From Escherichia phage vB_EcoS_MM01: DNA of 43,157 bases. The stretch lies in sequence record MK373793.1. The stretch is one strand, 5' to 3'. Both the position numbers and the translations under genes were made by a program. The notes below the pieces were generated by a model that saw nothing but the letters and a program-made list of their open reading frames with translations, made no database searches and was not told the origin of the DNA. Positions 1 through 43,157 of this stretch are shown here, in pieces (the stretch's first letter is position 1; every line of letters starts with the position of its first letter).

Positions 1-261
1 TTAACTCTTCCTTTATATGCAAATGTGAAACGGGTGATTCGCTTTTTCTTGTGCTGCATTTGATGGAAAAAGTCAATAGGTGAGAGAAAGAAAACAAGCA
101 ATTTACGCAACTTTTTGCAAATTAATCTCCCGCTGCAGTTTACACGTAAATCGCGTAGGGCGATGTATGCCAATTGGTTCCGCGGGTTTTTGGAGACGCC
201 TATTACGTACATTTACGTTTTAGTTACGCTAGAAATCCCTTATATATAAACAGCTTAGATT

Positions 262-279
262 TATTATTATTATTATTAT
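262..279. repeat. (ATT)6 microsatellite in AT-rich non-coding left end
   Basis: ttattattattattatta run read directly; no convincing ORF overlaps. Confidence 0.6.
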
Positions 280-391
280 ATATCTATGTAACTGGCGTAA
301 CAGATCATTGCGGGAGTGTCGATATGTTTTCATGTTCCGCGCGCGATTTATATAAATAAGGGGTATTGGGGTGCTATGGGCTAGGATTTTA

Positions 392-409
392 GGCATACAC
401 GGCATACAC
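392..409 (+). repeat. tandem direct repeat ggcatacac x2
   Basis: ggcatacacggcatacac read directly in non-coding leader. Confidence 0.5.
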
Positions 410-485
410 ACAAACTACAGCCTATCAATACTGGGCTAATTGATAGTTAAGCGTAAAAGTATAGAATATTTACACCAAATTATAT

Positions 486-514
486 TTGACTACGTGTAAA
501 TGCAGATGTATTAT
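486..514 (+). promoter_or_regulatory. sigma70-like promoter (TTGACT - 17 nt - TATTAT)
   Basis: near-consensus -35 and -10 hexamers with 17-nt spacer immediately upstream of first early ORF. Confidence 0.5.
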
Positions 515-544
515 GAACTCACTTTAAACGGGAGGAGAAAAGAA

Positions 545-1048
545 GTGAACGAAACTAAGACGCTGGGCGAAGTGATTCGCGAGATGGTAAAGATGGCCCT
601 GAAGTCTGAAGACAAGACATTCAGAGCTCCATTAGAGCACATAACTGAACTTGTGCTGGGGAAGGATTGTCGAGATGAGTTTGGGACGCTGCCAAGGCTT
701 GAGCAACTAAAAAGCTCTTACGTATATAACACTACGGCACGAATGGAAGAGCTGCGCGAAGCTGGGCTGAAAGCAACTCACAGCATTGAGTCTATAGATT
801 ATATGAATGACTTCGGGACTGGCTATATAAAAGGAGAGCCGGAGCTAGTAATTACACTTAAGCCAGGCACCACAAACATAGGCACTCGCAAAAAGGCAGT
901 CGAGCAAACAAAGATCGTAGCTATCGAAGAGTTCAAATCTAAGCTGCTTAAGTTCTCACCTAGCACAATTGAACTTGAAGGTGAGATGTTAGAAGGTGCA
1001 CTGTATGCAATAAATGCTTATCGCGAAATGATTAAGGAGATGAACTAA
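545..1048 (+). CDS. hypothetical early protein
   Basis: ORF-track frame 500..1048; GTG at 545 is 9 nt after GGAGG, whereas ATG at 500 lies inside the promoter spacer; no recognisable motif. Confidence 0.5.
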   Translation: MNETKTLGEVIREMVKMALKSEDKTFRAPLEHITELVLGKDCRDEFGTLPRLEQLKSSYVYNTTARMEELREAGLKATHSIESIDYMNDFGTGYIKGEPELVITLKPGTTNIGTRKKAVEQTKIVAIEEFKSKLLKFSPSTIELEGEMLEGALYAINAYREMIKEMN

Positions 1049-1332
1049 TGAGTTTCAACTATGAGGAATATTTAAAAGAGGTTCATGACTCAATGACTGA
1101 AGAGCAGAAGGCCAATATCGCCAGAATCAAAAGAACCATTGATGAGAACAACAGAATGCTTGAAGCTGAATATAATAAAGCGAATCCTCGATACAATGGA
1201 AAGACGGTTGATGAGTATATCCTTAGTAATTGCGTTAACAAGCCGTGGCATGAAAAGCACACTCGCGCTGAATGGGAAGAAGCTATGGAGTTGTGGCAGC
1301 TAATGAAGAAGCTAAATAAACTGGTAAAATAG
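1048..1332 (+). CDS. hypothetical protein (94 aa)
   Basis: ORF track; ATGA overlap with upstream gene; stop TAG is part of junction motif A. Confidence 0.5.
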   Translation: MSFNYEEYLKEVHDSMTEEQKANIARIKRTIDENNRMLEAEYNKANPRYNGKTVDEYILSNCVNKPWHEKHTRAEWEEAMELWQLMKKLNKLVK

Positions 1333-1347
1333 CACTTTTTGTTAAAA
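1328..1347 (+). repeat. junction motif A copy (aatagcactttttgttaaaa)
   Basis: contains TAG stop of ORF 1048..1332; hairpin ctccc-agtga-gggag; motif B atcgaaacga at 1379-1388; ATG 1403. Confidence 0.6.
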
Positions 1348-1402
1348 CTCCAGTGAGGGAGTTTGGCATAATAGCTTTATCGAAACGAGAGAGGGATTCA
1401 AG

Positions 1403-1483
1403 ATGTACTATGACGTTATCGCTGTTTGCTTGGTTGCCATTGTTGCTATCGTTGCCATTGTTAAGATTACGGAGAAGAAGTAA
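1403..1483 (+). CDS. small hydrophobic peptide (26 aa, MYYDVIAVCLVAIVAIVAIVKITEKK)
   Basis: short ORF read manually downstream of motif A/B unit; single predicted TM stretch. Confidence 0.3.
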   Translation: MYYDVIAVCLVAIVAIVAIVKITEKK

Positions 1484-1614
1484 TGCATACTCAATTTATG
1501 ATGGATGATGTTTTATATGAAGCAATGCCGTGGCTAATCTGGTCCCTGGGATTTATGATTGTGTATATGATTGCATCATTCGCGGATGACGCTAAAGAGG
1601 AAATTAAAGAATGA
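1483..1614 (+). CDS. small membrane protein (43 aa)
   Basis: read manually; TAATG overlap upstream and ATGA overlap with next gene; hydrophobic core WLIWSLGFMIVYMIA. Confidence 0.3.
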   Translation: MHTQFMMDDVLYEAMPWLIWSLGFMIVYMIASFADDAKEEIKE

Positions 1615-1868
1615 TTACTATCAACCTGTCAGAGAAAGACGCGGCGCTGCTAAAGAGTATCATCATGAAACCAATGTACTCCACACTATCGTTCGAGCAG
1701 ATGCGCGTAGTTAAAGAGGTCGGTGCGCAGATTAATAATCAGCAGTTCGATGTTAGTGACTTCGAGAACTCTCGCCAGTACGAGTCGCTAAGTGTAAACT
1801 CCGCATACCTGCACAATTGGGATAAGGCGACAAAGAATTGGAGATTCGATAAGGAGTTCAATAAATGA
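1611..1868 (+). CDS. hypothetical protein (85 aa)
   Basis: ORF track; translational coupling with neighbours. Confidence 0.5.
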   Translation: MITINLSEKDAALLKSIIMKPMYSTLSFEQMRVVKEVGAQINNQQFDVSDFENSRQYESLSVNSAYLHNWDKATKNWRFDKEFNK

Positions 1869-2290
1869 TTTACATCCACACTTACTACACTGGAAAGTTT
1901 AACAGCGTTAAGCATGTTCGCGTGCATTATAGCTACGAGAGTGCAAAGGCTCAGCATTTGGTTCTAGGTGGTGACATTAAGCAATACGGAGAGATAGCGC
2001 GAATTGGTAAACAATTACCTGATCAATCAGGCATAATTGCTACATTTACAACGAGATTGGGCGGAGAAATGAAAATCAAAATTACAAACGTGAACCACAG
2101 GCCAGAAGAAGGCTTAATGACACTAGAGGAATGTGGATTTAAGGTTGGTGACGTTGTTGACGTTGTTGACGTTGCTGGGGTTTACATGGATGGTCGAGTT
2201 TACATTCTTGTGACTCGTGCAAACGATGGGGTATCTGTTGGCAGCGCGGTTGTTTTGGGTGAGAATGAGTACGAGGTGATTGAAGAATGA
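1865..2290 (+). CDS. hypothetical protein (141 aa)
   Basis: ORF track; contains coding tandem repeat VGDVVDVVDV (gacgttgtt x3). Confidence 0.5.
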   Translation: MIYIHTYYTGKFNSVKHVRVHYSYESAKAQHLVLGGDIKQYGEIARIGKQLPDQSGIIATFTTRLGGEMKIKITNVNHRPEEGLMTLEECGFKVGDVVDVVDVAGVYMDGRVYILVTRANDGVSVGSAVVLGENEYEVIEE

Positions 2291-2466
2291 AATTCAGACA
2301 AAGTGACCCAAAGCTACAGGCCAATCACTTTGATGGCTACGCAACATTCATCATTGCACAGGCTTGCGGAATGCGCGAAGACCCACAGGTTCACACCATT
2401 CACATGACCGAAGAGCAGGCTAGAGAGTTAGCTTACGAAATTCTAGAGCAATTGAATCGAATTTAA
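2287..2466 (+). CDS. hypothetical protein (59 aa)
   Basis: read manually; ATGA overlap with upstream stop. Confidence 0.4.
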   Translation: MKFRQSDPKLQANHFDGYATFIIAQACGMREDPQVHTIHMTEEQARELAYEILEQLNRI

Positions 2467-2515
2467 CGCGTCTAGAACGAATTCTAACGAACGATAATTT
2501 AAGCGGGGTGATTTC

Positions 2516-2677
2516 ATGATTAAGATCATTTATACTGGTGACGATGATGATTTGGCGCTAATTCGGTTTGGCGATGTGCTATTCGCAAAGTTGAATGAGG
2601 ATGGAGATTGCTACATTGTAAAAAACAAGAATGGCGAGGATATTTACCTTTCAAGAGACGAGGTCATGATTTGCTAA
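2516..2677 (+). CDS. hypothetical protein (53 aa)
   Basis: read manually; purine-rich RBS upstream; TAATG overlap with next gene. Confidence 0.35.
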   Translation: MIKIIYTGDDDDLALIRFGDVLFAKLNEDGDCYIVKNKNGEDIYLSRDEVMIC

Positions 2678-2814
2678 TGGATAACTACGAATTACCAAGC
2701 CAGTGGGCTAAGAGAATGATGGATGGCGCTAAGACTGGCGAAGAGGCTATGCAGTACTTTGAACTGATGAATCTATGGAAGGAGCGGGAAGATAAAAATA
2801 GCACGAATAGCTAA
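2677..2814 (+). CDS. hypothetical protein (45 aa; C-terminus NSTNS encoded by motif A)
   Basis: internal ATG of track ORF 2608..2814 (track start is TTG); coupled to upstream stop. Confidence 0.4.
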   Translation: MDNYELPSQWAKRMMDGAKTGEEAMQYFELMNLWKEREDKNSTNS

Positions 2815-3776: not shown

Positions 3777-4283
3777 ATGAGCAAAGCAGCATTAAAGCTA
3801 GGCGAGGGCAACTTCAAGACTCTGTATAACAAGAAGTACGGCGATATCGCAATGGTGGCAGTTAACCGCAAATATACGCCTGAAGAGGTGTTTGATTTCG
3901 CGGTGAGATACTTTACCTGGGCTGAGGGTGAATCAATTAAAGCAATTGAGACGGCGGCATTCCAGGGTGTGGTTAGTGAAAACCTTATCCATAAGCCTAG
4001 AGTTTTTACCTTAACAGGCCTGGCTTTGTTTATGGGCGTCAAGATAGGTAGCTTTGCTCGTTGGCGTTCTGAGCCAGGTTACTCTGACGTCATGGAGTTT
4101 ATTGACAACGTAATATACGAGCAGAAGTATCAGCTAGGCGTTTCTGGTATCATCAACTCCACGATTGTTGGCAAGGAACTTGGAATTGATAAGCCGCAGG
4201 AGATCACCATTAGCAACAACTCCACTGCCAACGACGTTGATAGCATGAAGGCAGCGCTGGAATCTGTGATTGGTAAGCTGTAA
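3777..4283 (+). CDS. terS: terminase small subunit (putative)
   Basis: 168-aa ORF immediately upstream of terL with strong AGGAGG RBS; assignment by position. Confidence 0.5.
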   Translation: MSKAALKLGEGNFKTLYNKKYGDIAMVAVNRKYTPEEVFDFAVRYFTWAEGESIKAIETAAFQGVVSENLIHKPRVFTLTGLALFMGVKIGSFARWRSEPGYSDVMEFIDNVIYEQKYQLGVSGIINSTIVGKELGIDKPQEITISNNSTANDVDSMKAALESVIGKL

Positions 4284-4392: not shown

Positions 4393-5958
4393 ATGTCTTT
4401 AGTATGGGAAGAAATGACCATTCAGGAGAAGATGGCGGTTAAGGCTATATCAGAACACAGCTTCGAGGGATTCCTTAGGTGCTGGTTCCAGATTACTCAA
4501 GGCGAGCGGTATATCCCGAACTGGCATCACAAGTATTTGTGCAGAATCATTGACGAGATTATCGCTGGAGAGCGCAAGGACACCATTATCAATATAGCAC
4601 CTGGTAGCGGGAAGACAGAGATCGCATCAATACATTTCCCAGCCTACTCAATGGTTAAATTGAAGAAGGTAAGGAACCTTAACATCTCCTTTGCCGACTC
4701 CCTGGTTAAGCGTAACTCTAAGCGAGTTCGAGACCTTATCAAGTCGGCAGAATTTCAGGCGCTATGGCCTTGCAAGTTTGGAACATGCAAAGATGATGAA
4801 CTTCAGGTTCTTGATGAGAGTGGCAAGGTTAGATTTGAGTCAATATCAAAGGCGGCTGGGGGTCAGATTACTGGTGCGCGTGGTGGCTATATAACTGAAA
4901 AATATAGCGGTGCTGTGCTATTAGATGATTTTGACAAACCCGCAGATATGCTTTCACCAGTTTATCGAGCCAATAATCACGTAATGCTGAAAAACACCAT
5001 TCGCTCTCGTCGCGCTAGCTCAGTAAAAGGTAAGGCCACGCCAATCATTTCTATACAGCAGCGCCTGCACGTTAATGACTCAACATGGTTCATGATGGAA
5101 GGAGGGATGGGTATCGACTTTGATTTGATTAAGATACCTGCATTGGTAACTGAGGATTACATCGACACGCTACCTGACTGGATTAAAGAGCAATTTGCAG
5201 AGGATGTACTAAGCAGCGAATACATTGAGCGAGATGGAGTAAAGTACTACAGCTACTTTCCTAAAAAGGAGTCAGTAAGCGACCTGGTTGCGATGTGGGA
5301 TAGTGACTCTTACACTTTCCTTAGTCAATATCAGCAGGAACCTGTAGCGCTAGGTGGCAACCTCATTAACGTGGATTGGTTCCAGCGCATTAGCGACACG
5401 TTCAGACCTCCTGCTAAGTACGATTATCGATTCATAACTTGCGATACAGCTATGACTACAAAAAGTTATAGTGACTTCTCTGTACTTCAGCTGTGGGGAT
5501 ATAAAGATGCTAAGATTTACCTTATAGACCAGCGTCGCGGCAAATGGGAAGCACCAGAGTTGGAGGCAGAACTACTGGACTTCGAGAAGAAATCAAGGGC
5601 AACCAGTCAATCAGATGGCATCCTTCGAAAGATTATCGTCGAGAAGAAAGCATCTGGTATCGGCCTAATTCAATCAGCGAGTCGAGTTATGCGCACACCA
5701 GTAGAGCCTTACACACCGGATAAAGACAAGTTGACAAGGGTAATGAGTGCGCTGCCACAGATTAAGGCTGGTAACGTAGTTCTTCCTGAGTCTGCGACAT
5801 GGTTAAGCGGATTACTTACTGAGATTGCGGCATTTACCGCTGACGATTCTCATAAACATGATGACCAAATTGACTGTCTAACAATGGCGGTAAACCTGGT
5901 ACTTAACATTGTGGACGATCCCAAGTCTCGACTAATGCGCATAGCGGGAATTAAATAG
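4393..5958 (+). CDS. terL: terminase large subunit
   Basis: 521 aa; Walker A PGSGKTE, Walker-B-like VLLDDFD, C-terminal nuclease-like acidic residues. Confidence 0.85.
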   Translation: MSLVWEEMTIQEKMAVKAISEHSFEGFLRCWFQITQGERYIPNWHHKYLCRIIDEIIAGERKDTIINIAPGSGKTEIASIHFPAYSMVKLKKVRNLNISFADSLVKRNSKRVRDLIKSAEFQALWPCKFGTCKDDELQVLDESGKVRFESISKAAGGQITGARGGYITEKYSGAVLLDDFDKPADMLSPVYRANNHVMLKNTIRSRRASSVKGKATPIISIQQRLHVNDSTWFMMEGGMGIDFDLIKIPALVTEDYIDTLPDWIKEQFAEDVLSSEYIERDGVKYYSYFPKKESVSDLVAMWDSDSYTFLSQYQQEPVALGGNLINVDWFQRISDTFRPPAKYDYRFITCDTAMTTKSYSDFSVLQLWGYKDAKIYLIDQRRGKWEAPELEAELLDFEKKSRATSQSDGILRKIIVEKKASGIGLIQSASRVMRTPVEPYTPDKDKLTRVMSALPQIKAGNVVLPESATWLSGLLTEIAAFTADDSHKHDDQIDCLTMAVNLVLNIVDDPKSRLMRIAGIK

Positions 5959-9554: not shown

Positions 9555-11096
9555 ATGGCTTTAGAATTTAGGCAAATCCTTGCTGGTAACACAGCATCAC
9601 TTAGCCGTAAGGTGCTAGAGGCAATTGCGGAAGGTTGGCAGCCATTTGATAGAGTCCTGACCGGTACTGGATCTAATACCATTGGCATGGTTGTAGCCAA
9701 GGGAACCAATGCAGACATTACCGATTTCATGGTTCTTACTGCCACCAGTCGTCAAAAGCTAATTGATAGAGTAAACGATATCACTCACGAAGGTTGGGAG
9801 GTGTTTGGCGAACCGTCATCTGAGTCAAATCAGTTTGCAGTTGCGTTAACTAAAGGATTTCAGGGTACATCCGGTAGAGATGGAATGGCTGGCCCACAAG
9901 GTCCGCAAGGTCCGCGCGGAGAGGTTGGCCCAGAAGGTCCGCAGGGTCCAAAAGGTGACGATGGTACGCCTGGTGAAAAGGGTGAGCGTGGCGCTGTAGG
10001 TCCGCAAGGACCAATTGGCCCACAGGGCATTCAAGGTCCGCAAGGAATTCAAGGTCCAGCTGGCTTAAAGGGTGATAAGGGCGATAGGGGTGATGTTGGA
10101 CCGCAAGGGACGCAAGGATTAAAAGGTGATACTGGCGAGAAAGGAGACCCTGGCGAAGTCGGGCCTGCTGGTTTAACATTCCGTGGGCAATGGGTTCCTA
10201 GCACTGGTTATACAAAAGATGACACTGTAGTTTACGGCGGCTCAACCTACTTCGCAGTTAGCAACATTGCAGAAGATGAGGAACCTGGAGTATCACCTCT
10301 GTGGGTTGTTCTTGCCGCTCAGGGTACGAAAGGTGATAAGGGTGATAAGGGTGACCCTGGTGATATCGGTCCTCAAGGTGAAAAAGGAGAAACAGGACAG
10401 CAGGGCCCAAGAGGGGTTCAGGGGCAACAAGGTATTCAAGGTTTACCAGGCGAACAGGGGCCAAAAGGTGATCAAGGATTGCAAGGAATTACTGGACCAG
10501 CCGGTCCTCAAGGACCAAAAGGTGACACTGGACCTCAGGGTATTCAAGGTCCACAAGGGATTAGAGGGGTTGCTGGAGCGGTAGGACCACAAGGACCACA
10601 GGGAGAGAGGGGCGAAAAGGGCGATAAAGGAGAAAAAGGCGAAACTGGCGCAACCGGCCCACAGGGTCCAGCAGGTCAAAATAATACAAACAATCCAGTT
10701 TATACAACTCAACTTACCGTATCGACAAGCTACTCAGCTATAGCTATACCAAACAACCCTGGCATCTCTTTTTCAGTCAGAAGGGTTGGGAATAACATTG
10801 AGTACTCTTTTGTAGGCAACTCAATTGCAGGAAGGTATTTTGATGTTGAGGTTGTAAACTTTCCATCTGCTGACGTAGTTAAGAGATATCAGTCAAACCA
10901 CACAATTGCAGGAACTAGCAGGTATGTTGTAGGTGATCCTGCTGGTTATACTGGTGGTGGATATAAAAGAATTCAATTCTCAGCTAGAGATTGGGGAGAT
11001 AAAAACATTATAATGATTGATGTTTTTCACCTTCAGCGCCCAGCTGATACTAGTTTTAACATCGCAATTAGGATTGAGACATTCAAGCTGCCATAA
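9555..11096 (+). CDS. collagen-like repeat protein (putative head or tail fibre)
   Basis: 513 aa; two long Gly-X-Y blocks (approx. aa 107-196 and 248-360) flanking a globular insert, plus non-collagenous N- and C-terminal domains. Confidence 0.8.
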
Positions 11097-14819: not shown

Positions 14820-14839
14820 CATAGCACTTTTTGCTAAAG
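14820..14839 (+). repeat. junction motif A copy (catagcactttttgctaaag)
   Basis: motif A followed by motif B atcgaaacga at 14871-14880 and ATG 14898. Confidence 0.6.
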
Positions 14840-26681: not shown

Positions 26682-26701
26682 CTTTAGCAATTCGTGCTAT
26701 T
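26682..26701 (-). repeat. junction motif A copy (aatagcacgaattgctaaag on minus strand)
   Basis: supplies stop codon of upstream methyltransferase-like ORF; motif B at 26641-26650. Confidence 0.6.
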
Positions 26702-27359: not shown

Positions 27360-27866
27360 ATGCGCGAGGTTCTTTGCAACATTCCGGCTTATGATAGTAT
27401 TGTTAACAGCGAAACGGCTCAGAAGGAGTTATCAATCTTTGGTGAGATTCTCGGTGTTGGTGTAAAGATTCGAATTGACCACGTTGACGTTGTTGATGGA
27501 GTTGTTCATATCACAGATTATAAGACCACAGCAGACGCAAGCCCTGAAGGGTTCGGTAAATCAGCTTTCTCTCATGGATACTTGGCTAAAATGGCATTGC
27601 AGCGCGATCTGTTTGTAAAAGCATTTAACGAGAAGAGGAAGGTAGTCGTTGGTCTTATGGCACAAGAAAAAACTGAACCTTACTTACCCATGAAGTACAC
27701 GCTAACAGATGATCAGCTTCGTATTGGCAGATTGCAGTATCTTGAAGCCCTAGCTACATACAAGAAATGCAAGGAGCTTGATATATGGCCTGGTTACTCA
27801 AATGGGATTACAGAGCAAGAGCTAGTTATCCCTGATTGGGCAACTAAGCAGTATAAAGAAATTTAA
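27360..27866 (+). CDS. PD-(D/E)xK exonuclease (lambda Exo/YqaJ-like), possibly N-terminally truncated
   Basis: catalytic-core-like IDHVDVVDG...ITDYKT near N-terminus; frame opens only at 27312. Confidence 0.55.
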   Translation: MREVLCNIPAYDSIVNSETAQKELSIFGEILGVGVKIRIDHVDVVDGVVHITDYKTTADASPEGFGKSAFSHGYLAKMALQRDLFVKAFNEKRKVVVGLMAQEKTEPYLPMKYTLTDDQLRIGRLQYLEALATYKKCKELDIWPGYSNGITEQELVIPDWATKQYKEI

Positions 27867-27885
27867 ATAGCACGAATTGCTAAAA
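27866..27885 (+). repeat. junction motif A copy (aatagcacgaattgctaaaa)
   Basis: starts in the TAA stop of the exonuclease; motif-B variant catcaacaacgaacgagg precedes Erf ATG. Confidence 0.6.
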
Positions 27886-28630: not shown

Positions 28631-29056
28631 ATGCACGTAATTACTGGTCAGATTCGCCGCGCTCCATTCACAAAAGAAGGTCAAAATGCAAATGGTAACT
28701 GGAAGATGTTTGCAATCGATCTCTCTGAAAGTTTTAAAAACAAAGACGGTCAGCGAGAGTACACATCATATCGCGCAGTTTTCTTTGCCAAAGAGTCAAT
28801 GTTAGATTGGTATAACGAGGCATTTCAGGAAGGTAAGATTGTTAGCGTTAGCGCAGAGAGCTTGTCTGTTGATGTTCGGGATAAAGATGGTAAGACTTAC
28901 GTGACTGTTAATATGAACAACCCTCGACTTGAGTTTAGTCAGCGTGGTGATTCACAACCGCAGCAAAATAATAGACAGCAGCAACAACAGAATCAACAAC
29001 AGCAAAGGCAACAACCACAGCAACAACAGCAATTTAATGACGATATACCATTCTAA
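28631..29056 (+). CDS. ssb: single-stranded DNA-binding protein
   Basis: Gln-rich linker and C-terminal acidic tip FNDDIPF, like bacterial SSB DDDIPF. Confidence 0.7.
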   Translation: MHVITGQIRRAPFTKEGQNANGNWKMFAIDLSESFKNKDGQREYTSYRAVFFAKESMLDWYNEAFQEGKIVSVSAESLSVDVRDKDGKTYVTVNMNNPRLEFSQRGDSQPQQNNRQQQQQNQQQQRQQPQQQQQFNDDIPF

Positions 29057-29059
29057 AGA

Positions 29060-29085
29060 TAAAGCCCCTTTCGGGGCTTTTTTTA
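29060..29085. terminator. bidirectional rho-independent terminator
   Basis: agcccc-tttc-ggggct hairpin with A run before and T run after, between convergent ssb and tail fibre genes. Confidence 0.6.
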
Positions 29086-30603
29086 TCACATATTTACACG
29101 AACGGAAACAAAAGAATCTTTTGGTATGTCTATTGGGTCACCATCACTATATCCATCAATCTTGTTTGATGCGAAAGCTGGAGAGACTTCATGAACTCTG
29201 TGGTATGTCTTTAATTTTATTGACCCGTCCTCATTAACAGAGTAATCAATCCATATTCTTGGTTGCTTGTTTATGTCAACTGGAACCTCAAAGCCTCCAT
29301 CAACACCACCCCAGGCGGCGTCGGAGTTAAGGCCTGTGCATCCAGATATCAAATAAACACCTTCAGAAATCCTCTCAACCTCACACCCCTCTGCTTCTGA
29401 GCTAATTTCAAAACTACCATCACCAAAAACCTTAACTATTGGTGAGGCTATCTTAATAAATCCATTTGAGTCGACCGTTGTATTTAAATCTCTTACGAAA
29501 AAATCCCTCCAGTCTGTTAGTCTAGCTGGATTATCGAATCTCTGCCTAAATCTGGGTGCGCCCTCTGTTATTGTTGAGAATCCAATTTGACTGTAATTAC
29601 CTGAAAGACCATTCTCTGCTATTGTCATTACCTCAGCGTAAGGGTATGGAGCGCCATTACCTCCCGGATAAGGTGATGAGTCTGAGGAGTAAAAACCAAT
29701 GCCACTCCTCATTGGCGTCGATCCATAAGCCACCGTTGCTGGATGCTTTGTATACATAGAGTTGATGTTATTTGATGCTTCAACATCTGTTGTAGCCCCA
29801 GTTCCACCACTGATTAAAGGTAAGGCAATTCTTTCTTGGGATGGATTGTAAAAGTAACCCCAGTCGGCCTCCCCAACGAAAAATTTATAATTACCACTAC
29901 CAGAGTCGACGTATGTTGTTTCCTGGCCCTGTTCAAACCTTGAAACTAAATTATTAACCTCTGCTTTTGAATAAACCTCAATATTTGTCCTTGCTAGTGG
30001 TTTGTCTAAGATATCCGATAAAGCCCTGTCAACTCTTAGGAGGTTTGATGCATTAACAGATGCCGCGCTATCAGCTGCCTCTGCTGCTGAAGCTGCTGCT
30101 GCATTACTGTCAGATAATGCACTTGCTGCGCTTGCAGCTGCTGCATCTTTATCGGCAGAAACAATAGCCCTATCAGCTGAAACCTGGGCAGCATCAGTAG
30201 CTACTTGCTGAAATTGAGCGTTTACTGTATTTATGCTTTGCTGAAATTCATCAGCATCAAAGTCATTAAAAGCATCTACAGCGGATGCAACTTCAGTTTC
30301 ACGTGACTGATAGTAACGAAGGGTTTCTGCAACATCCTGAGCCAAACCCTGAACAGTAATTCCATCGTGAGCAAGAATCGCGTAACCAGTGCCAGCCGGA
30401 ACAGTTTCAGAATTAGGGTTATAAACATTAATCTGCGTATCGCTGATAATCTCTGAGATGGTGTAAATTTTTACTGGTTCAGTTTTAAATACAATGGTGG
30501 CGCCTACGCGAATCAGTGTAAGAGGCGCCTTCCATGATGTCCCTACGCCAGTAACCTCGCCATTTGCAGCTAGTGAAGCTGTTCCTAAGTCATAAATTGC
30601 CAT
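29086..30603 (-). CDS. tail fibre protein (putative)
   Basis: 505 aa; Ala/Ser-rich central segment and Gly/Ser-rich C-terminal domain; assignment by composition. Confidence 0.45.
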   Translation of the reverse strand: MAIYDLGTASLAANGEVTGVGTSWKAPLTLIRVGATIVFKTEPVKIYTISEIISDTQINVYNPNSETVPAGTGYAILAHDGITVQGLAQDVAETLRYYQSRETEVASAVDAFNDFDADEFQQSINTVNAQFQQVATDAAQVSADRAIVSADKDAAAASAASALSDSNAAAASAAEAADSAASVNASNLLRVDRALSDILDKPLARTNIEVYSKAEVNNLVSRFEQGQETTYVDSGSGNYKFFVGEADWGYFYNPSQERIALPLISGGTGATTDVEASNNINSMYTKHPATVAYGSTPMRSGIGFYSSDSSPYPGGNGAPYPYAEVMTIAENGLSGNYSQIGFSTITEGAPRFRQRFDNPARLTDWRDFFVRDLNTTVDSNGFIKIASPIVKVFGDGSFEISSEAEGCEVERISEGVYLISGCTGLNSDAAWGGVDGGFEVPVDINKQPRIWIDYSVNEDGSIKLKTYHRVHEVSPAFASNKIDGYSDGDPIDIPKDSFVSVRVNM

Positions 30604-30625: not shown

Positions 30626-30644
30626 AATAGCACATTTTGTTAAG
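30626..30644 (+). repeat. junction motif A copy, orphan (aatagcacattttgttaag)
   Basis: plus-oriented between two minus-strand genes; no motif B or plus-strand gene downstream. Confidence 0.5.
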
Positions 30645-31620: not shown

Positions 31621-31675
31621 ATACACCTCCATAAACAATAAAGGCACTATACATAATGCACAGTGCCATTGCTTA

Positions 31676-32182
31676 TCAAATCGTGCTGTTTTGCTCTGAC
31701 TCTCTCTTTTTCTTATTCTCTTCCTTAATCTTGCGCCATGATCTAGCAGGTGGTTTTTTTGCTAAATCCTCCTTCTTAACAACTCTAAGCATTTCTCGAC
31801 GGTCGCAACGCAATGTTAGTGGCTTACCGTTGCTATCAAATCGCAGATCAGGACGAATGAAGCTAGCTCTATATCCTTCGCCTGTACGCTTGTACTTTCC
31901 GTGCAGCTTCTGCGCGCCTTTCGCTGAGATCATTCCGCGCTTACACCACTCAGAAACTACTGCATGAGTCACATTGGCGGCTTTTGCTAGCTTCGATTTA
32001 CCGCCGTAGAAGTTAAGAACTATCTCAAGCCTTGCGCGTAAACTTGCTCGCACTTCATCCTTCAAAGTGTAGTAGCCATAAGGTCGACTACGTTCTTTCT
32101 TATCTTCGCCTCGCTGGGTTCCGTTATTTCCATTTAATGTACGCTTGTCCACTTCACCAGTTGATTCCGCGATTCTCGTCAT
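31676..32182 (-). CDS. HTH DNA-binding protein (Cro/YdaS-like, putative regulator)
   Basis: GGKSKLAKAANVTHAVVSEWCKRGMIS helix-turn-helix-like segment; basic termini. Confidence 0.45.
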   Translation of the reverse strand: MTRIAESTGEVDKRTLNGNNGTQRGEDKKERSRPYGYYTLKDEVRASLRARLEIVLNFYGGKSKLAKAANVTHAVVSEWCKRGMISAKGAQKLHGKYKRTGEGYRASFIRPDLRFDSNGKPLTLRCDRREMLRVVKKEDLAKKPPARSWRKIKEENKKKRESEQNSTI

Positions 32183-32193
32183 TATTAATCTCC

Positions 32194-32213
32194 AATAGCA
32201 CTTTTTGTTAAAA
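32194..32213 (+). repeat. junction motif A copy (aatagcactttttgttaaaa)
   Basis: in divergent intergenic region 12 nt from HTH gene start and about 70 nt upstream of helicase ATG. Confidence 0.6.
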
Positions 32214-34278: not shown

Positions 34279-34698
34279 GTGAAGATTACAGATAAAGAAG
34301 ATTACATTGAGTTTTACCCAGGCGCTGTAAAGTCATGCCCAAAGGAGGATGACGAACAGATCTTTTGCTCTGATTGGGTTAAGTATCATTATCCGCAGAT
34401 TGTTTACTGGCATACAGTTAATGAAGGTATGAAATCAATTGGGTCAGCAAGGAAGGATGCAGCCAAGGGTTTGCTTAAGGGTGTATCAGATTGCTTATTC
34501 CTGATACCCGAATCGCTGCGTGGCAAGTACCCTTTCGGAGCTATAGAGTTAAAGAGAGCTGGCAAGACCCAGGCTAGTCCAGTCAGCGATGAACAAAGGT
34601 CTTTCCTTAAAAGCGTAAGAGAATCAGGCGGCTTCGCAGGTGTCGCATACGGGCGCGAAGGTTTTCTTGCAGCATTCAAAGAAATGATTTCAAAATAG
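34279..34698 (+). CDS. VRR-NUC domain nuclease (putative)
   Basis: 139 aa; PD-(D/E)xK-like DCLFL...GAIELK; GTG start coupled to helicase stop. Confidence 0.5.
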   Translation: MKITDKEDYIEFYPGAVKSCPKEDDEQIFCSDWVKYHYPQIVYWHTVNEGMKSIGSARKDAAKGLLKGVSDCLFLIPESLRGKYPFGAIELKRAGKTQASPVSDEQRSFLKSVRESGGFAGVAYGREGFLAAFKEMISK

Positions 34699-34713
34699 CA
34701 CTAATTGCTAAAG
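34694..34713 (+). repeat. junction motif A copy (aatagcactaattgctaaag)
   Basis: TAG stop of VRR-NUC gene lies within motif; motif B at 34745-34754; ATG 34777. Confidence 0.6.
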
Positions 34714-35891: not shown

Positions 35892-37028
35892 ATGGCAACT
35901 GCAAAAATTACCAACGAAGAGCTGCGCGAAGAGCTGGCGAACGGTATGACTAACAAAGCAATCGCAGAGAAGTACGGTATGAATATTCGCAATGTTGAGT
36001 TGCGTCGTAGTAAATTGGCAAAGAGTGGAGAATTGCACGGAAACCCAGGCATCAAAAAGCTAGTTCCTGACGGTTATATGGTTAAGGGAACATCAACGAT
36101 GATTGATGCCGAAGGTAACGAAAAGATTCGCTGGGTTAAAACATCCGTAGATAATGAGCGCCTTGAGGTTTTAATGGAGCAGGCTCGAGAGGCATTTTGC
36201 TCAGAGTTGCCAAAGGCTATTCCATCTGAATCACCGAATGTTAACTTTGATGATAACACACTTGCGATGTATCCAGTTTTTGATTTACACATTGGAGCAA
36301 TGGCACACAAACACGAGTGCGGCGAAAACTACGACACAGCAACAGCCGAGAAAGTAATGAATGGATTCTTTGATTACGCTGTTGATAAGGCGCCAAACTC
36401 TAAGAATGCTGTATTGGTATTGGGTGGCGATTTCCTGCATTACGATTCACTTGAGGCAAAAACACCAGCTTCAGGGCATATCTTAGATAGCGACAGTCGT
36501 TATGCAAAAATTGTTTATGTTGCAATCCGGTCAGTACGTCGTGCAATTTCTCGAATGATGGGGAAGCACCAGAATATCGACATTAAAGTTATAAGCGGAA
36601 ACCATGATGAAGCGGGAATGGTTTGGTTGCGTGCGGCGCTGGCTGCATTTTATGAAGATGAGCCGCGTGTAAGCGTTGACGTTAGCCCTGCCGCTATGAT
36701 GATGACCAGCTTTGGAAGCACGCTTATTGGTTATACTCATGGGCACCAGATGCGTAAAGCTGATACAAGACTGACTGTTATGGCAACTGATTTCCGTAAG
36801 TTGTTTGGGCAAAGTGAGTATGTTTATACACATAGTGGCCATTGGCACTCACAGAAAATTACAGAGACGAATCTTGGTATTGATGAAGTTCACGGCCAGC
36901 TAGGTAGCCCAGATGCGTACTCGGCAAATGGCGGCTGGCGCTCTCAGCGTCAAGCGGCAGTAATCGTTTATCATAAGGAATTTGGCGAGGTTGGTCGCTT
37001 CATCTGTCGCCCAAAAATGTTTAGCTAA
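35892..37028 (+). CDS. calcineurin-like metallophosphoesterase with N-terminal HTH-like domain
   Basis: motifs DLHIG, GGDFLHYD, GNHDE, GHWH in order; N-terminal TNKAIAEKYGMNIRNVELRR resembles an HTH. Confidence 0.65.
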   Translation: MATAKITNEELREELANGMTNKAIAEKYGMNIRNVELRRSKLAKSGELHGNPGIKKLVPDGYMVKGTSTMIDAEGNEKIRWVKTSVDNERLEVLMEQAREAFCSELPKAIPSESPNVNFDDNTLAMYPVFDLHIGAMAHKHECGENYDTATAEKVMNGFFDYAVDKAPNSKNAVLVLGGDFLHYDSLEAKTPASGHILDSDSRYAKIVYVAIRSVRRAISRMMGKHQNIDIKVISGNHDEAGMVWLRAALAAFYEDEPRVSVDVSPAAMMMTSFGSTLIGYTHGHQMRKADTRLTVMATDFRKLFGQSEYVYTHSGHWHSQKITETNLGIDEVHGQLGSPDAYSANGGWRSQRQAAVIVYHKEFGEVGRFICRPKMFS

Positions 37029-37046
37029 TAGCACTTTTTGTTAAAA
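37027..37046 (+). repeat. junction motif A copy (aatagcactttttgttaaaa)
   Basis: begins right after TAA stop; hairpin acccac-gaaa-gtgggt; motif B 37078-37087; ATG 37100. Confidence 0.6.
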
Positions 37047-37594: not shown

Positions 37595-37858
37595 ATGACT
37601 AGAGAGAAATATAACAGAGAAATCATTGGCCTGAATGGCGAAACTGCAATCGTGGACGTATATCGAGTTCTTTCGGCTTTTAATGTGCAAAACCCAATGG
37701 CACAGCACGCAATCAAAAAGCTCCTTTGTGCAGGGTTAAGAGGCCACAAAGACTTAAACGAGGATGTTGATGACATTATCGATTCATTGCAGAAAATGAA
37801 AACCTTCTTAGGTCAGCAGCAAATAGCACAAATTGCTAAAGACAATAATCAAAAGTAA
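37595..37858 (+). CDS. hypothetical protein (87 aa)
   Basis: ORF track; embeds a motif A copy in its C-terminal codons. Confidence 0.45.
   Translation: MTREKYNREIIGLNGETAIVDVYRVLSAFNVQNPMAQHAIKKLLCAGLRGHKDLNEDVDDIIDSLQKMKTFLGQQQIAQIAKDNNQK
37822..37841 (+). repeat. junction motif A copy embedded in coding sequence (aatagcacaaattgctaaag)
   Basis: encodes QIAQIAK; motif B at 37873-37882 precedes next gene. Confidence 0.55.
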
Positions 37859-39641: not shown

Positions 39642-39661
39642 TTTTAACAAAAAGTGCTATT
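39642..39661 (-). repeat. junction motif A copy (aatagcactttttgttaaaa on minus strand)
   Basis: follows TAA stop of upstream gene; hairpin gcccat-catgggc; motif-B variant catcgaaaaga. Confidence 0.6.
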
Positions 39662-40005
39662 TAAGAGAATAACTCGTCGTCAGTCATCATTCCTATGCTC
39701 ATCATCTCTTTTATATACTTGCTGCCATACCCGCTCAGTGCTTCGAAGCTAAACTCAAACGGCCTTTTCAGACTCCCCTTGCTAACAAACTCACCACACT
39801 TACCATCAATATATCCAGCGCTTAACATCTTAGCGCAGAACTCCTTTGAAGCTGCACTACAAAACTCTCTGTGCGACAAGCCTGCCGCCTTGCTGAATCT
39901 CTCTGAATCCTTGTGCTTGTATATGAATCGCGCCAAATGCTGACGCGTGAAGTAAGAATACGACTCACAAAATCTGTATACATCGAGAAGAAACATCTTA
40001 ATCAC
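39661..40005 (-). CDS. hypothetical protein (114 aa)
   Basis: ORF track; GTG start overlapping upstream stop. Confidence 0.45.
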   Translation of the reverse strand: MIKMFLLDVYRFCESYSYFTRQHLARFIYKHKDSERFSKAAGLSHREFCSAASKEFCAKMLSAGYIDGKCGEFVSKGSLKRPFEFSFEALSGYGSKYIKEMMSIGMMTDDELFS

Positions 40006-41585
40006 CCTATTACACGTGGATTAACATAAACACGGTCATCAATCATGCAAACATAGTTACGCTCTTCAAGCATCGGGATTAAGTGGTCCTTAATCTTCGT
40101 CATTACGCCAGCCTGAGCCTCGAATGGCTTAACCTTACGAGCAGCCTCATACAACGCACGAAGGCTAACGAAACCTTTACCAGCCTTACCCATCTTCAGA
40201 GCCAGGTCGATAAGTTTATTCATCTCGGCGTTATCACCAGCATGACCAGCGGCATTGGCAGAAGATAAATATGTTTTGCTTAACTCGTTAAACATTAAAA
40301 CTGCTTCTTGCATTGTTTCAAGTTCAATCTCGCGTGACTTCTGAGGATTACTACCTTCTTCAGATACCCAATTGCGAACAGTATGAAGAACCGAGGCTAT
40401 GCGGATTGCCTGCTTGTCAAACTTACCAAGTGCGCCACGCAGCATTGTATGACTATACTTACCACCATCACGTAAGTGCGGCTCCATATCCTGGCGAGCA
40501 CGGTTTAAATAACGCATAGCCGAATCGCTAATGGTCAGTTTAACATCGACTTCACTCATGATATTGTGAATTAGCTTAAAGTAAGTTGCCTTAAGCGCTC
40601 CATCAATAGGCTCATAAGTTGAACGACCCTCATCATCAACAAAAACACGTTCACCTAAGAATGATTTCTCACGAACAAGCAAAAAACGCTCTGATACACC
40701 GATACCGCGAGCACCAGCATTCATGATTGCGTTGATTGTCTCATCCTGTGCAATTACAGAGATACAACCCAACGCAGTAAAAGACATGTTGTTTTCAGCG
40801 TTAGCACGAGCAATAGAAACATCACCAGAGTCCCACGCCTTAAGAACCAGTTCACTGTTTGTCTTTTTGCTTCCGTCACCATAAGTCATGCCTAATAATG
40901 AGTTTACAGAAGTTGCTTCATCCGATATTACAGCAAAGTTACCTTGACGGAAGTTAATTCGCGCAAGACCTTCAGGAGTTGTGTCAGATACAGGAAAAAC
41001 CACATCACATAACTTCTCCAGCTTCTCCTCAAGATTCTCCTTATCTTCAAACAATCTGGCCATTTCCGAAGGTGATTGCTCCTGCTTCATTTCTTTAGCG
41101 AGAGCAGAGAGTTTCGCCATAATCTTTTTACGTTCACGCTTGCGCTCTTCGTTGATTCTGTCTCGTTCAGCAATCATTGGCGCAGTTGCCAGGCTGTTAA
41201 TTGCTGATTTACCGGTTGAAGGCGGCTGGCTTGTAACAACATAAAGCGCGGTTGGCTGAGTTGTTCCGTGATACTCAACAGTAAAGCGACCCAGCATTGC
41301 AGAAGATACGCAGCCGAGAAAATGCATATAAGCAGAAGAAGCCGGGAACTGTACTGAGCGGGCGATGTTAGCCGATAGCTTACCTACCACATCAAAATCA
41401 TTTCCAAGACTGATTACAGGATACTTATCATTACAATTCTCAACCTCTACAGGGTCTTTCCAGAATGACTGAGCGTATCGCATACCGTTCGCTTTAATTG
41501 CCACACGAAGCGGTGAAATGCCTTGCTGCTGCGCAATAGCCATAACCTGGTCGACACTCAACTTGCTGGATTCGAACTCAAACAT
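40002..41585 (-). CDS. P-loop NTPase (replication-associated ATPase, DUF3987-like?)
   Basis: Walker A QPPSTGKSA and Walker-B-like AVISDEA; start at MFEFESS inside track ORF. Confidence 0.5.
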   Translation of the reverse strand: MFEFESSKLSVDQVMAIAQQQGISPLRVAIKANGMRYAQSFWKDPVEVENCNDKYPVISLGNDFDVVGKLSANIARSVQFPASSAYMHFLGCVSSAMLGRFTVEYHGTTQPTALYVVTSQPPSTGKSAINSLATAPMIAERDRINEERKRERKKIMAKLSALAKEMKQEQSPSEMARLFEDKENLEEKLEKLCDVVFPVSDTTPEGLARINFRQGNFAVISDEATSVNSLLGMTYGDGSKKTNSELVLKAWDSGDVSIARANAENNMSFTALGCISVIAQDETINAIMNAGARGIGVSERFLLVREKSFLGERVFVDDEGRSTYEPIDGALKATYFKLIHNIMSEVDVKLTISDSAMRYLNRARQDMEPHLRDGGKYSHTMLRGALGKFDKQAIRIASVLHTVRNWVSEEGSNPQKSREIELETMQEAVLMFNELSKTYLSSANAAGHAGDNAEMNKLIDLALKMGKAGKGFVSLRALYEAARKVKPFEAQAGVMTKIKDHLIPMLEERNYVCMIDDRVYVNPRVIG

Positions 41586-41658
41586 CTTAATACTCCATCT
41601 CGTTAATATGCGGGCATTATATAACACCCGCTCAGATATGCTTTAACTTTTAGTGCTG

Positions 41659-42227: not shown

Positions 42228-42247
42228 TTTTAGCAATTCGTGCTATT
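42228..42247 (-). repeat. junction motif A copy (aatagcacgaattgctaaaa on minus strand)
   Basis: encodes C-terminal NSTNC* of upstream small gene; motif-B variant catcgagacg at 42188-42197. Confidence 0.6.
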
Positions 42248-42782: not shown

Positions 42783-43050
42783 GCTTTTTCATCTCGTTAA
42801 TGAAACATTGAACAACAAGCAGCTTGTCTTCGTTATGAATCGGCGACTCTTTAAGGGCATCAATCACCGCGTTAAGAGGAGCTCCGTCATGGAAGAACTC
42901 CTGACCCAGGCTACAGAACTGTGCGCTTGTAGGGTAAGCAATCTGGTTAACAGTGGTCGTCATCGTGTCAGCGCTTGCCTTTGCGAAGCCAATTCCAGAT
43001 GCCAGAATTGCTGCTGCGTATACTGCTGTGATTAACTTTTTCATATCCAT
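42769..43050 (-). CDS. secreted/periplasmic protein with signal peptide
   Basis: N-terminus MKKLITAVYAAAILASGIGFAKA typical Sec signal; preceded by motif A/B unit. Confidence 0.5.
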   Translation of the reverse strand: MDMKKLITAVYAAAILASGIGFAKASADTMTTTVNQIAYPTSAQFCSLGQEFFHDGAPLNAVIDALKESPIHNEDKLLVVQCFINEMKKHEDK

Positions 43051-43097
43051 CTCCTCGTTGTTGATGTGTTAACTATAGCCACATAGATTCAATATGT

Positions 43098-43117
43098 CTT
43101 TAGCAAAAAGTGCTATT
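43098..43117 (-). repeat. junction motif A copy (aatagcactttttgctaaag on minus strand)
   Basis: motif-B variant catcaacaacgaggag lies between it and ATG 43050. Confidence 0.6.
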
Positions 43118-43157
43118 TCTCAGATTGGCGATAATCACTGGTATCACAAAGGTATCA
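43103..43157 (-). CDS. 3' end of a gene running off the window edge (partial; ...RNSTFC*)
   Basis: only one minus frame is open to the window edge; stop TAA lies inside motif A. Confidence 0.25.

Follow-up and report, generated by a model that had tools for sequence, protein, structure and literature searches.

The left end of the Escherichia phage vB_EcoS_MM01 genome as part of a conserved divergent control region with a probable packaging start and early promoter

We analyzed the AT-rich stretch at positions 1 to 545 of the genome of Escherichia phage vB_EcoS_MM01 (MK373793.1). The window, by which we mean the whole 43,157-bp stretch of DNA that was analyzed, is the complete genome of a T1-like siphophage of the Rtp/ACG-M12 type (Drexlerviridae, Braunvirinae); in a megablast search, its first 25 kb was 62 to 74% covered at 81 to 85% identity in ACG-M12, SCS31, CEB_EC3a, Rtp, and many others. 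An initial annotation, made from the sequence by itself, had described the stretch as non-coding, with repeats and a near-consensus promoter, and had proposed it as a genome terminus, packaging (pac) site, origin, or regulatory hub. The reading that we favor, with moderate confidence, is that it belongs to a conserved control region between two divergent gene blocks and that this region combines the pac region with an operator-controlled first early promoter. For the pac part, the argument comes from homology to ends mapped in relatives and from a layout in which the cut zone is flanked by blocks of repeats. For the promoter part, it comes from hexamers that are close to the consensus and conserved, and from a conserved palindrome at a site where RNA polymerase would be blocked by a bound dimer. 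T1-like phages, long familiar as contaminants of laboratories, are now candidates for therapy and biocontrol, and their pac is known only to within approximately 100 bp. A long untranslated left-end stretch containing pac has already been reported for such phages (PMC7718038, PMC11447400, PMC8421802).

The intergenic region across the record ends

The rightward genes of the window begin at 545 with small early genes and continue through terS (3777 to 4283) and terL (4393 to 5958) into the structural genes, and a leftward gene block occupies 39 to 43 kb, its first gene starting on the minus strand at 43044 or 43050. As had been annotated, no convincing gene was found at 1 to 544: the open reading frames (ORFs) there were no longer than 61 amino acids (aa), and none was conserved across relatives in frame, strand, or length. 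The left end was likewise AT rich, with a G+C content (GC) of 36.9% at 1 to 545 versus 43.8% for the genome and 24% at 201 to 300. All of the features listed in the initial annotation were recovered within a few bases of their earlier coordinates.

The extent given to the region in that annotation held as far as its non-coding character is concerned, but its start does not lie at position 1, since the region continues over the record junction into 43045 to 43157. Neither a terminal repeat nor a cos sequence was detected, in that the two record ends had no sequence of at least 8 nucleotides (nt) in common; one internal 10-mer match between them was put down to chance. Position 1 falls in the same alignment column as the first base of ACG-M12, and the Rtp and T1 records start 18 to 24 window positions to the right of it. 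Because the start column is shared with ACG-M12, the record was opened for collinearity with earlier records and not at a measured end; the paper on ACG-M12 is silent on the choice of its genome ends. Judged from these alignments, position 1 is a convention of the record rather than a physical end.

Closing the permuted genome joins 43045-43157, the part of the region at the right-hand end of the record, to 1-544 and yields a single divergent intergenic region of approximately 650 bp. In relatives with other record starts, the gap is unbroken and unannotated and measures 685 bp in BEK2, 675 bp in DTL, 706 bp in IME253, 684 bp in IME542, 700 bp in JulesPiccard, and 710 bp in JK06. The same region is 700 bp long in T1 and 783 bp long in TLS, and in both it is the largest annotation gap. 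Across 14 relatives from four subfamilies, it was non-coding and 650 to 780 bp in length. The Rtp copy measured 1015 bp and carried an insertion of approximately 330 bp beside the leftward gene, which bears a second copy of the 21-nt repeat described below. Because the record is opened inside a functional unit, constructs for engineering or rebooting must keep 43045-544 contiguous.

The predicted packaging start

TerS matched PF16677 (P22 gp3-like), TerL is encoded adjacent to it, and close relatives are circularly permuted and lack a cos site. The sequence of this phage has the properties of headful packaging, namely, a predicted pac-type terminase and no fixed repeat ends. In the T1 record, the terminal redundancy is annotated at 1..2800 and begins within the region considered here. 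In TLS, a submolar HindIII fragment together with HindIII/EcoRV sub-digests placed pac approximately 5.9 kb from a HindIII site (PMC11447400). In SU57, the end was set where one of several PhageTerm candidates met an abrupt change of coverage in this untranslated region (UTR) (PMC7718038), and in MSK, PhageTerm indicated headful packaging with a forward-strand peak at 36,862 (p 1.6e-9) (PMC8421802).

The sequences of MSK, SU57, and CEB_EC3a were aligned to the window to place their ends. The MSK peak sits in the conserved GGACTA[C]CATACAAG and aligned to window position ~113, the SU57 start to ~128, and the CEB_EC3a start to ~135; the equivalent of the T1 end was ~24. The aligned intergenic region held, at equivalents of window positions ~1 to 135, the ends of T1, TLS, SU57, and MSK as well as the record starts of Rtp, ACG-M12, and CEB_EC3a, which are arbitrary. 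This is the comparison with related genome ends that the initial annotation had suggested. Its proposal of a terminus or pac site stands in part: four independent mappings in relatives lie in the homologous regions, but position 1, which lacks a terminal repeat and repeats the ACG-M12 start, is not itself such an end. Of the four functions that it had offered, two find support. Because the aligned MSK, SU57, and CEB_EC3a positions fall there, we infer by homology to these relatives a zone of the first pac cut at approximately 100 to 135, with packaging rightward (plus strand).

In the mechanism that we propose, the terminase would make its first cut in the concatemer within this zone, and heads would then fill rightward, toward the DUF7174 gene at 545, terS and terL, and the structural genes. 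The blocks of repeats that flank the cut would most likely serve as the platform on which the small terminase subunit assembles. The left part of this platform would be a lineage-specific block (43127 to 100), and the right part, on the packaged side, would consist of a palindrome at 139-150, phased TTACGY repeats, and an easily deformed AT tract at 232-291.

Several observations weigh against this assignment. The cut in the present phage was placed by homology, and the four ends mapped in relatives are scattered over approximately 100 bp. The GGACTACCATACAAGTTGATTTT element around the MSK and SU57 ends was not present in the window or in ACG-M12, where a different block of approximately 130 bp was found, and this block swap is not mirrored in TerS, which is approximately 90% identical between this phage and phages with the other left block. 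P22-type small terminases are known to use a single site of approximately 22 bp inside terS and not repeat arrays, and the pac region here lies 3.7 kb upstream of terS. The P22-pac-like word AAGATTTATCTG, which was tried as a pac marker, had 59 matches in the genome versus 57.8 expected and was rejected as uninformative. The MSK record is flagged UNVERIFIED, and the T1 and TLS ends were fixed in part through weak likeness to P22 pac, which in TLS was how the final base was picked (PMC11447400). In SU57, which showed no cos behavior, there were several PhageTerm candidate ends and no submolar fragment (PMC7718038), and these last two points also count against the assignment.

The putative binders of the repeats are TerS, a very basic protein resembling Cro/CI (31676-32182; isoelectric point [pI], 10.2) encoded beside the primase gene, a 111-aa protein (39664-39996), and the DUF3987 ATPase (40002-41627). 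The 111-aa protein is a homologue of a TLS protein annotated as containing a helix-turn-helix (HTH) domain, and its gene adjoins that of the ATPase, for which no match was found among solved structures. These candidates were 44 to 70% identical to their T1 and TLS counterparts alike. Tests for covariation between the left block or motif type and TerS or the replication proteins were uninformative, TerS being so nearly the same across block types.

GATC sites were found in clusters beside the assigned pac ends of two relatives, to the left of their record starts: TLS has three within approximately 35 bp (CGATCC, TGATCG, and TGATCA), and T1, just left of its start, has a pair within 12 bp; the window has no such cluster. 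These clusters recall the Dam-regulated TGATCA/G hexamers of P1 pac. Over the whole genome of the present phage, GATC was strongly depleted, with 45 sites versus 138 +/- 11 in shuffles that preserved dinucleotides and none to the right of 39471, and the genome has no homologue of the Dam methylases of T1 and TLS. Both of those phages encode Dam, and their GATC counts (235 sites in T1 and 281 in TLS) are above expectation.

Repeats, AT tract, and promoters

The TACGT-containing repeats of the initial annotation proved to be real and to form a single family, TTAC[GA][CT] (TTACRY), with 11 copies at 103 to 500 versus an expectation of 1.6 based on the remainder of the genome; 11 copies were reached in 0 of 2000 first-order Markov simulations, for a pattern that was chosen post hoc, after the data had been seen. 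The enrichment recurred in the homologous region of T1, AHS24, Phagiculus, BEK2, DTL, IME253, and JulesPiccard (P from 0.015 to 2e-8), genomes that share ancestry and are not independent trials, and it was not found in the homologous region of IME542 or JK06. The 8-bp palindrome TACRYGTA occurs in the whole 43-kb genome at 141 and 491 only. The upstream copy lies within TTTACACGTAAA (139 to 150, no strand), an operator-like palindrome of the TTACRYGTAA type that we term O2; an ACRYGT-centered palindrome occupies the same column in most aligned genomes and is degenerate in T1 and absent in SU57.

Three direct TTACGY repeats follow on the plus strand at 203, 213, and 224 (203 to 229), spaced by 10 and 11 bp, or one helical turn, and they abut the AT tract. 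Direct TWACRY copies were found to the left of this tract in most relatives, including T1, where AAATTACGCC occurs twice, and TLS has an equivalent layout built from GTTCWC (6 copies versus 0.43 expected). The AT-rich tract itself (232 to 291, no strand; 17% GC) holds the (TTA)6 microsatellite and is the least stable 60-bp duplex of the genome, with a nearest-neighbor free energy of -58.3 kcal/mol versus a genome mean of -79.3 (standard deviation, 4.6), which places it 4.6 standard deviations off the mean. The homologous tract is the stability minimum in T1 and TLS as well. Tandem Repeats Finder (TRF) confirmed the microsatellite as (TTA)6.3 at 261-279; no other perfect trinucleotide microsatellite occurs in the genome. 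A (TTA)n of 4 to 8 units is kept in Braunvirinae and Rogunavirinae, and T1 and TLS are AT rich there without (TTA)n.

On the right flank of the tract are two inverted copies of the motif (TTACAT and TTACGC on the minus strand, 286 to 300), and inverted arms at 223-232 and 292-301 bracket it. A cruciform or hairpin across the tract was not indicated, the single-stranded DNA fold being no better than that of shuffles (z = -1.7). The order of direct repeats, AT tract, and inverted repeats was full or partial in most of the 12 genomes scanned and clearest in the window, ACG-M12, BEK2, DTL, and AHS24, with TLS having a version in its own motif.

The stretch at 300-480 is more variable. It contains the annotated GGCATACAC tandem, which TRF recovered as two copies on the plus strand at 392 to 409, with a 9-bp period and the motif variant ATACAC. 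The tandem aligns with three copies of GATTAACAC in T1 and with GTTACACGCACGACACG in BEK2; taken alone it is unremarkable, tandem 9-mers being common in coding regions. A run of 9-bp tandem repeats was also seen within a 513-aa ORF (9555-11096) that matches a "collagen repeat protein" annotated in AugustePiccard. Sequence and alignment also identified the inverted repeat CTATCAAT-N8-ATTGATAG at 421 to 444 (no strand), and in this column several Braunvirinae relatives carry AGCTATAGCT, a palindrome, with GGGCT after it.

Far from being filler, the "untranslated left end" has conserved parts in a fixed order across the four subfamilies examined, and the region holds a candidate operator pair and an array, origin-like or terminase-platform-like, around the most meltable DNA of the genome. 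We did not find this layout of a TTACRYGTAA pair, phased half-sites, a genome-minimum AT tract, and a conserved microsatellite described in the papers on T1-like phages that were consulted; the T1 and Rtp genome papers may mention some of its elements. The TLS paper reported that no origin-like repeats were found in that genome (PMC11447400).

The rightward early promoter, PR, lies at 486 to 514 on the plus strand and consists of TTGACT (486-491), a 17-nt spacer, and TATTAT (509-514), agreeing with the consensus at 10 of 12 positions. A second palindrome, TACGTGTAAA (491 to 500), termed O1, lies within PR, where it takes up the beginning of the spacer. Most of 14 relatives kept both the -35/-10 pair and, between the two hexamers, an ACRYGT palindrome. 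By its hexamers, their spacing, conservation, and the gene with a Shine-Dalgarno sequence downstream, 486-514 qualifies as a predicted sigma-70 early promoter, in agreement with the promoter that had been annotated for the first early gene. A second promoter-like site at 440-467 was specific to this genome. We propose that PR would fire the first rightward gene and that the 10-bp spacer palindrome would be an operator, at which a dimeric DNA-binding protein would shut PR off, with O2 as a second copy approximately 350 bp upstream; we infer both this protein and the repression of PR.

Downstream of PR, the Shine-Dalgarno sequence GGGAGGAG (530-537) precedes the first rightward gene, which begins with GTG at 545 and encodes a 167-aa DUF7174 protein (PF23796, E = 3e-47; 530 to 1048 in all, plus strand). 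An ATG at 500 falls within the promoter, and homologues begin at the position of the GTG at 545. In TLS too, the gene that follows the region is that of DUF7174, and the same holds, weakly, for T1. The protein is acidic (pI 5.4), and its AlphaFold2 model (predicted local distance difference test score, 78) had no fold match in the PDB (best E = 0.06, template modeling score < 0.3). A role as a Rep-like autoregulated initiator was considered and rejected on the grounds of this acidity and the lack of a DNA-binding fold match. The T1 copy gave a sub-threshold match to AcrF2 (E = 0.005); an anti-defense role for DUF7174 would fit the position of the gene but is unsupported.

At the other edge of the region, the leftward promoter cassette, PL (43072 to 43118, minus strand), consists of a 21-nt repeat at 43098-43118 (AAATAGCACTTTTTGCTAAAG on the minus strand) and a -10-like TATAGT at 43077-43072. 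This repeat is a perfect copy, heads the leftward operon, and is nearly invariant in 12 of 12 aligned genomes. Its consensus, aaATAGCACnnnTTGnTAAAA, has been described as a Drexlerviridae repeat for TLS, T1, Rtp, and Rogue1, and its function was listed among the open questions by the authors of the 2024 TLS paper (PMC11447400). Searched as AATAGCACnnnTTGYTAA, it had 14 copies in the genome versus 0.13 expected, all oriented along transcription (1328-1345, 2797-2814, 14820-14837, 26684-26701, 27866-27883, 30626-30643, 31673-31690, 32194-32211, 34694-34711, 37027-37044, 37822-37839, 39644-39661, 42230-42247, and 43100-43117). In 11 of the 14, a -10-like hexamer stood exactly 21 nt after the repeat, and in 9 of the 14, the leader ATCGAAACGA stood at exactly 33 nt; this fixed spacing was not found in the paper that describes the repeat (PMC11447400). 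The TTGYTA within the repeat is 22 nt from the -10 hexamer and thus too distant for a -35 role. A dyad, TAGCA-N5-TGCTA, is centered near -42. Class II activators bind near -42.

The 21-nt repeat is adjoined by AGATT (43122 to 43126, plus strand), in which the aligned genomes share GATT without exception and, almost without exception, the A before it. Its candidacy as the homologue of AGATTT, the word assigned to pac in TLS, was rejected, the TLS word sitting approximately 110 bp further right. Next come three direct GRTAWTCAY repeats on the plus strand (GATAATCAC, GGTATCAC, and GGTATCA|T; 43130 to 43157), which are 9 to 11 bp apart, the last being split by the record junction. GRTATCAY was not enriched genome-wide, and the set of three is statistically weak.

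These repeats belong to the lineage-specific left block, which spans 43127-100 (1 to 100 in the left end, no strand) and occurs only in ACG-M12-type phages; blastn with positions 3-301 gave matches only in ACG-M12, SCS31, and ECH1. Most relatives have in its place a highly conserved block that takes up the approximately 120 bp to the right of the 21-nt repeat and is rich in TTGCAAT/GCAATATTGC, with TTGCAA and GCAATATTGC palindromes. An ORF for a hydrophobic product (FSKKCYSLDLWIVADIAMI...) within this alternative block is open in nine relatives and is called a "membrane protein" in some records. Its substitutions were lowest at third codon positions, without the third-position bias expected of coding sequence, and because this pattern is not codon-like, the constraint on the block acts on the DNA. 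On the side of the present phage, a 48-aa ORF (MSLAKSAISQIGDNHWYHKG...; 43094-43157 plus 1-83) spans the record junction and is missed by ORF finders on the linear record. It has the same length in ACG-M12, with 8 synonymous versus 11 non-synonymous codon changes. Because it lacks a Shine-Dalgarno sequence and starts within the 21-nt repeat, it is probably not a gene.

Alternative readings and comparison with known systems

A possible alternative, to which we give clearly less weight, is that the central module (139-150, 203-229, 232-291, and 286-300) is the replication origin of T1-like phages, situated within approximately 100 bp of the packaging start, with pac merely adjacent. An initiator oligomer would bind the direct half-sites and melt the adjoining (TTA)6 tract, where the phage helicase and primase would load, and early transcription would be autoregulated, as in iteron plasmids, by a dimer of this protein on the PR-spacer palindrome. 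In iteron replicons, the dimer binds the operator and the monomer binds the iterons. The AT tract, as the genome-wide stability minimum here and in T1 and TLS, qualifies as an AT-rich unwinding element, half-site repeats stand 10 to 11 bp apart on one of its flanks and inverted copies lie on the opposite flank, the full palindrome overlaps the core promoter, and TACRYGTA sites are confined to this single region of the genome. Replication genes are present as well, including those of the DUF3987 ATPase and the adjacent homologue of the TLS protein annotated with an HTH domain, the Cro/CI-like protein just upstream of primase, and a superfamily 2 (SF2) helicase, and in the literature that we found, neither an origin nor transcription start sites have been reported for Drexlerviridae. 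If this reading were true, opening of the origin and shutdown of the first early promoter would both fall to a single DNA-binding protein of the phage.

However, although the three TTACGY repeats have a conserved layout, they are only 6 to 7 bp long, versus 17 to 22 bp for typical iterons, and the pattern was recognized post hoc. No integration host factor (IHF) core site was found in the region, nor was a cluster of DnaA boxes (TTWTNCACA), there being one match with one mismatch in 1-544 and two more where the first leftward gene begins; over the whole genome, the DnaA-box count was below chance. An oriC-like, DnaA-dependent origin is thus not indicated. The acidic DUF7174 product of the gene behind PR, with no DNA-binding fold, is not an initiator, and no cognate initiator is adjacent, the putative binders being encoded 1.5 to 11 kb away. 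GC skew was of no help, since it follows the direction of transcription in this genome. Low duplex stability alone is not diagnostic either: a second non-coding gap upstream of recE is equally unstable in T1 (~29,850-30,380) and TLS (~28,700-29,170), where it is another candidate unwinding site, and an equivalent of it was not among the five least stable sequence windows of the present genome. The pac and origin readings are not mutually exclusive.

It is unlikely, in our view, that the region is purely a transcriptional control region or insulator between the divergent early operons, with packaging starting elsewhere or without a fixed site. The palindromes would then be operators of a looping repressor, the half-sites auxiliary to them, and the AT tract a spacer or a target of nucleoid proteins. 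Such a reading would account for PL and PR at the two edges of the region, for a palindrome kept both in the PR spacer and approximately 350 bp upstream, which is the classic geometry of an operator pair, and for PR being without the 21-nt repeat and the only canonical strong sigma-70 promoter at the region when 14 other promoters use the 21-nt cassette; a PhageTerm run on KanT1 also gave no obvious termini. Conversely, the approximately 370 bp of conserved layout exceeds the needs of an operator pair, the TTACRY-type motif is missing from all other promoters of the genome, and the four independent mappings place pac ends of relatives here.

Hidden small genes or a non-coding RNA are very improbable as an explanation of the region, since the retention of the 48-aa junction ORF in ACG-M12 and of the open hydrophobic ORF in nine relatives is offset by the properties of both given above, neither frame nor strand is constant from genome to genome for the ORFs over the AT tract, and the Rfam 15 covariance models gave no credible match in window positions 1-1200 or in the regions of eight relatives.

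With our favored reading of a pac region joined to an operator-controlled early promoter, the region can be set beside several known systems. It resembles in outline iteron origins (pPS10, pSC101, and F, as well as those of SaPI and P4), with helically phased direct repeats beside the least stable DNA, inverted copies on the opposite flank, and a palindrome of two half-sites over a promoter, and these origins differ in the length of their repeats, in having an adjacent initiator gene, and in the Rep-like nature of the gene that the promoter serves. Composite packaging sites, such as pacL-pacC-pacR of SPP1, pac of P1, and cosN-cosB of lambda, share with the region a cut zone, predicted in the present phage, between short repeated motifs, opposed repeats around a bendable AT segment on the packaged side, and a dedicated non-coding stretch of a few hundred base pairs; they have no sequence similarity to it, and in the present phage, TerS is P22 gp3-like, the site is upstream of terS by the distance given above, and an IHF core site is lacking.

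The region also resembles the pac-containing left-end UTR of T1, TLS, SU57, and MSK. It is of equal size and lies at the same place between the same divergent blocks, the 21-nt repeat and leftward promoter mark one of its edges and DUF7174, as the first gene, the other, its AT-rich minimum is likewise approximately 200 to 240 bp from the record start, and the phages have a TerS of the same family. It differs in that approximately 130 bp around the mapped ends is replaced by an unrelated block in this phage and ACG-M12, and in that the terminus was mapped in these relatives and is placed here by homology to their pac regions. The perfect copy of the 21-nt Drexlerviridae repeat (PMC11447400) is in the same intergenic region, outside 1-544, and PR does without it. 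The main roles of the region are as expected for T1-like phages, and it is otherwise ordinary for this genome.

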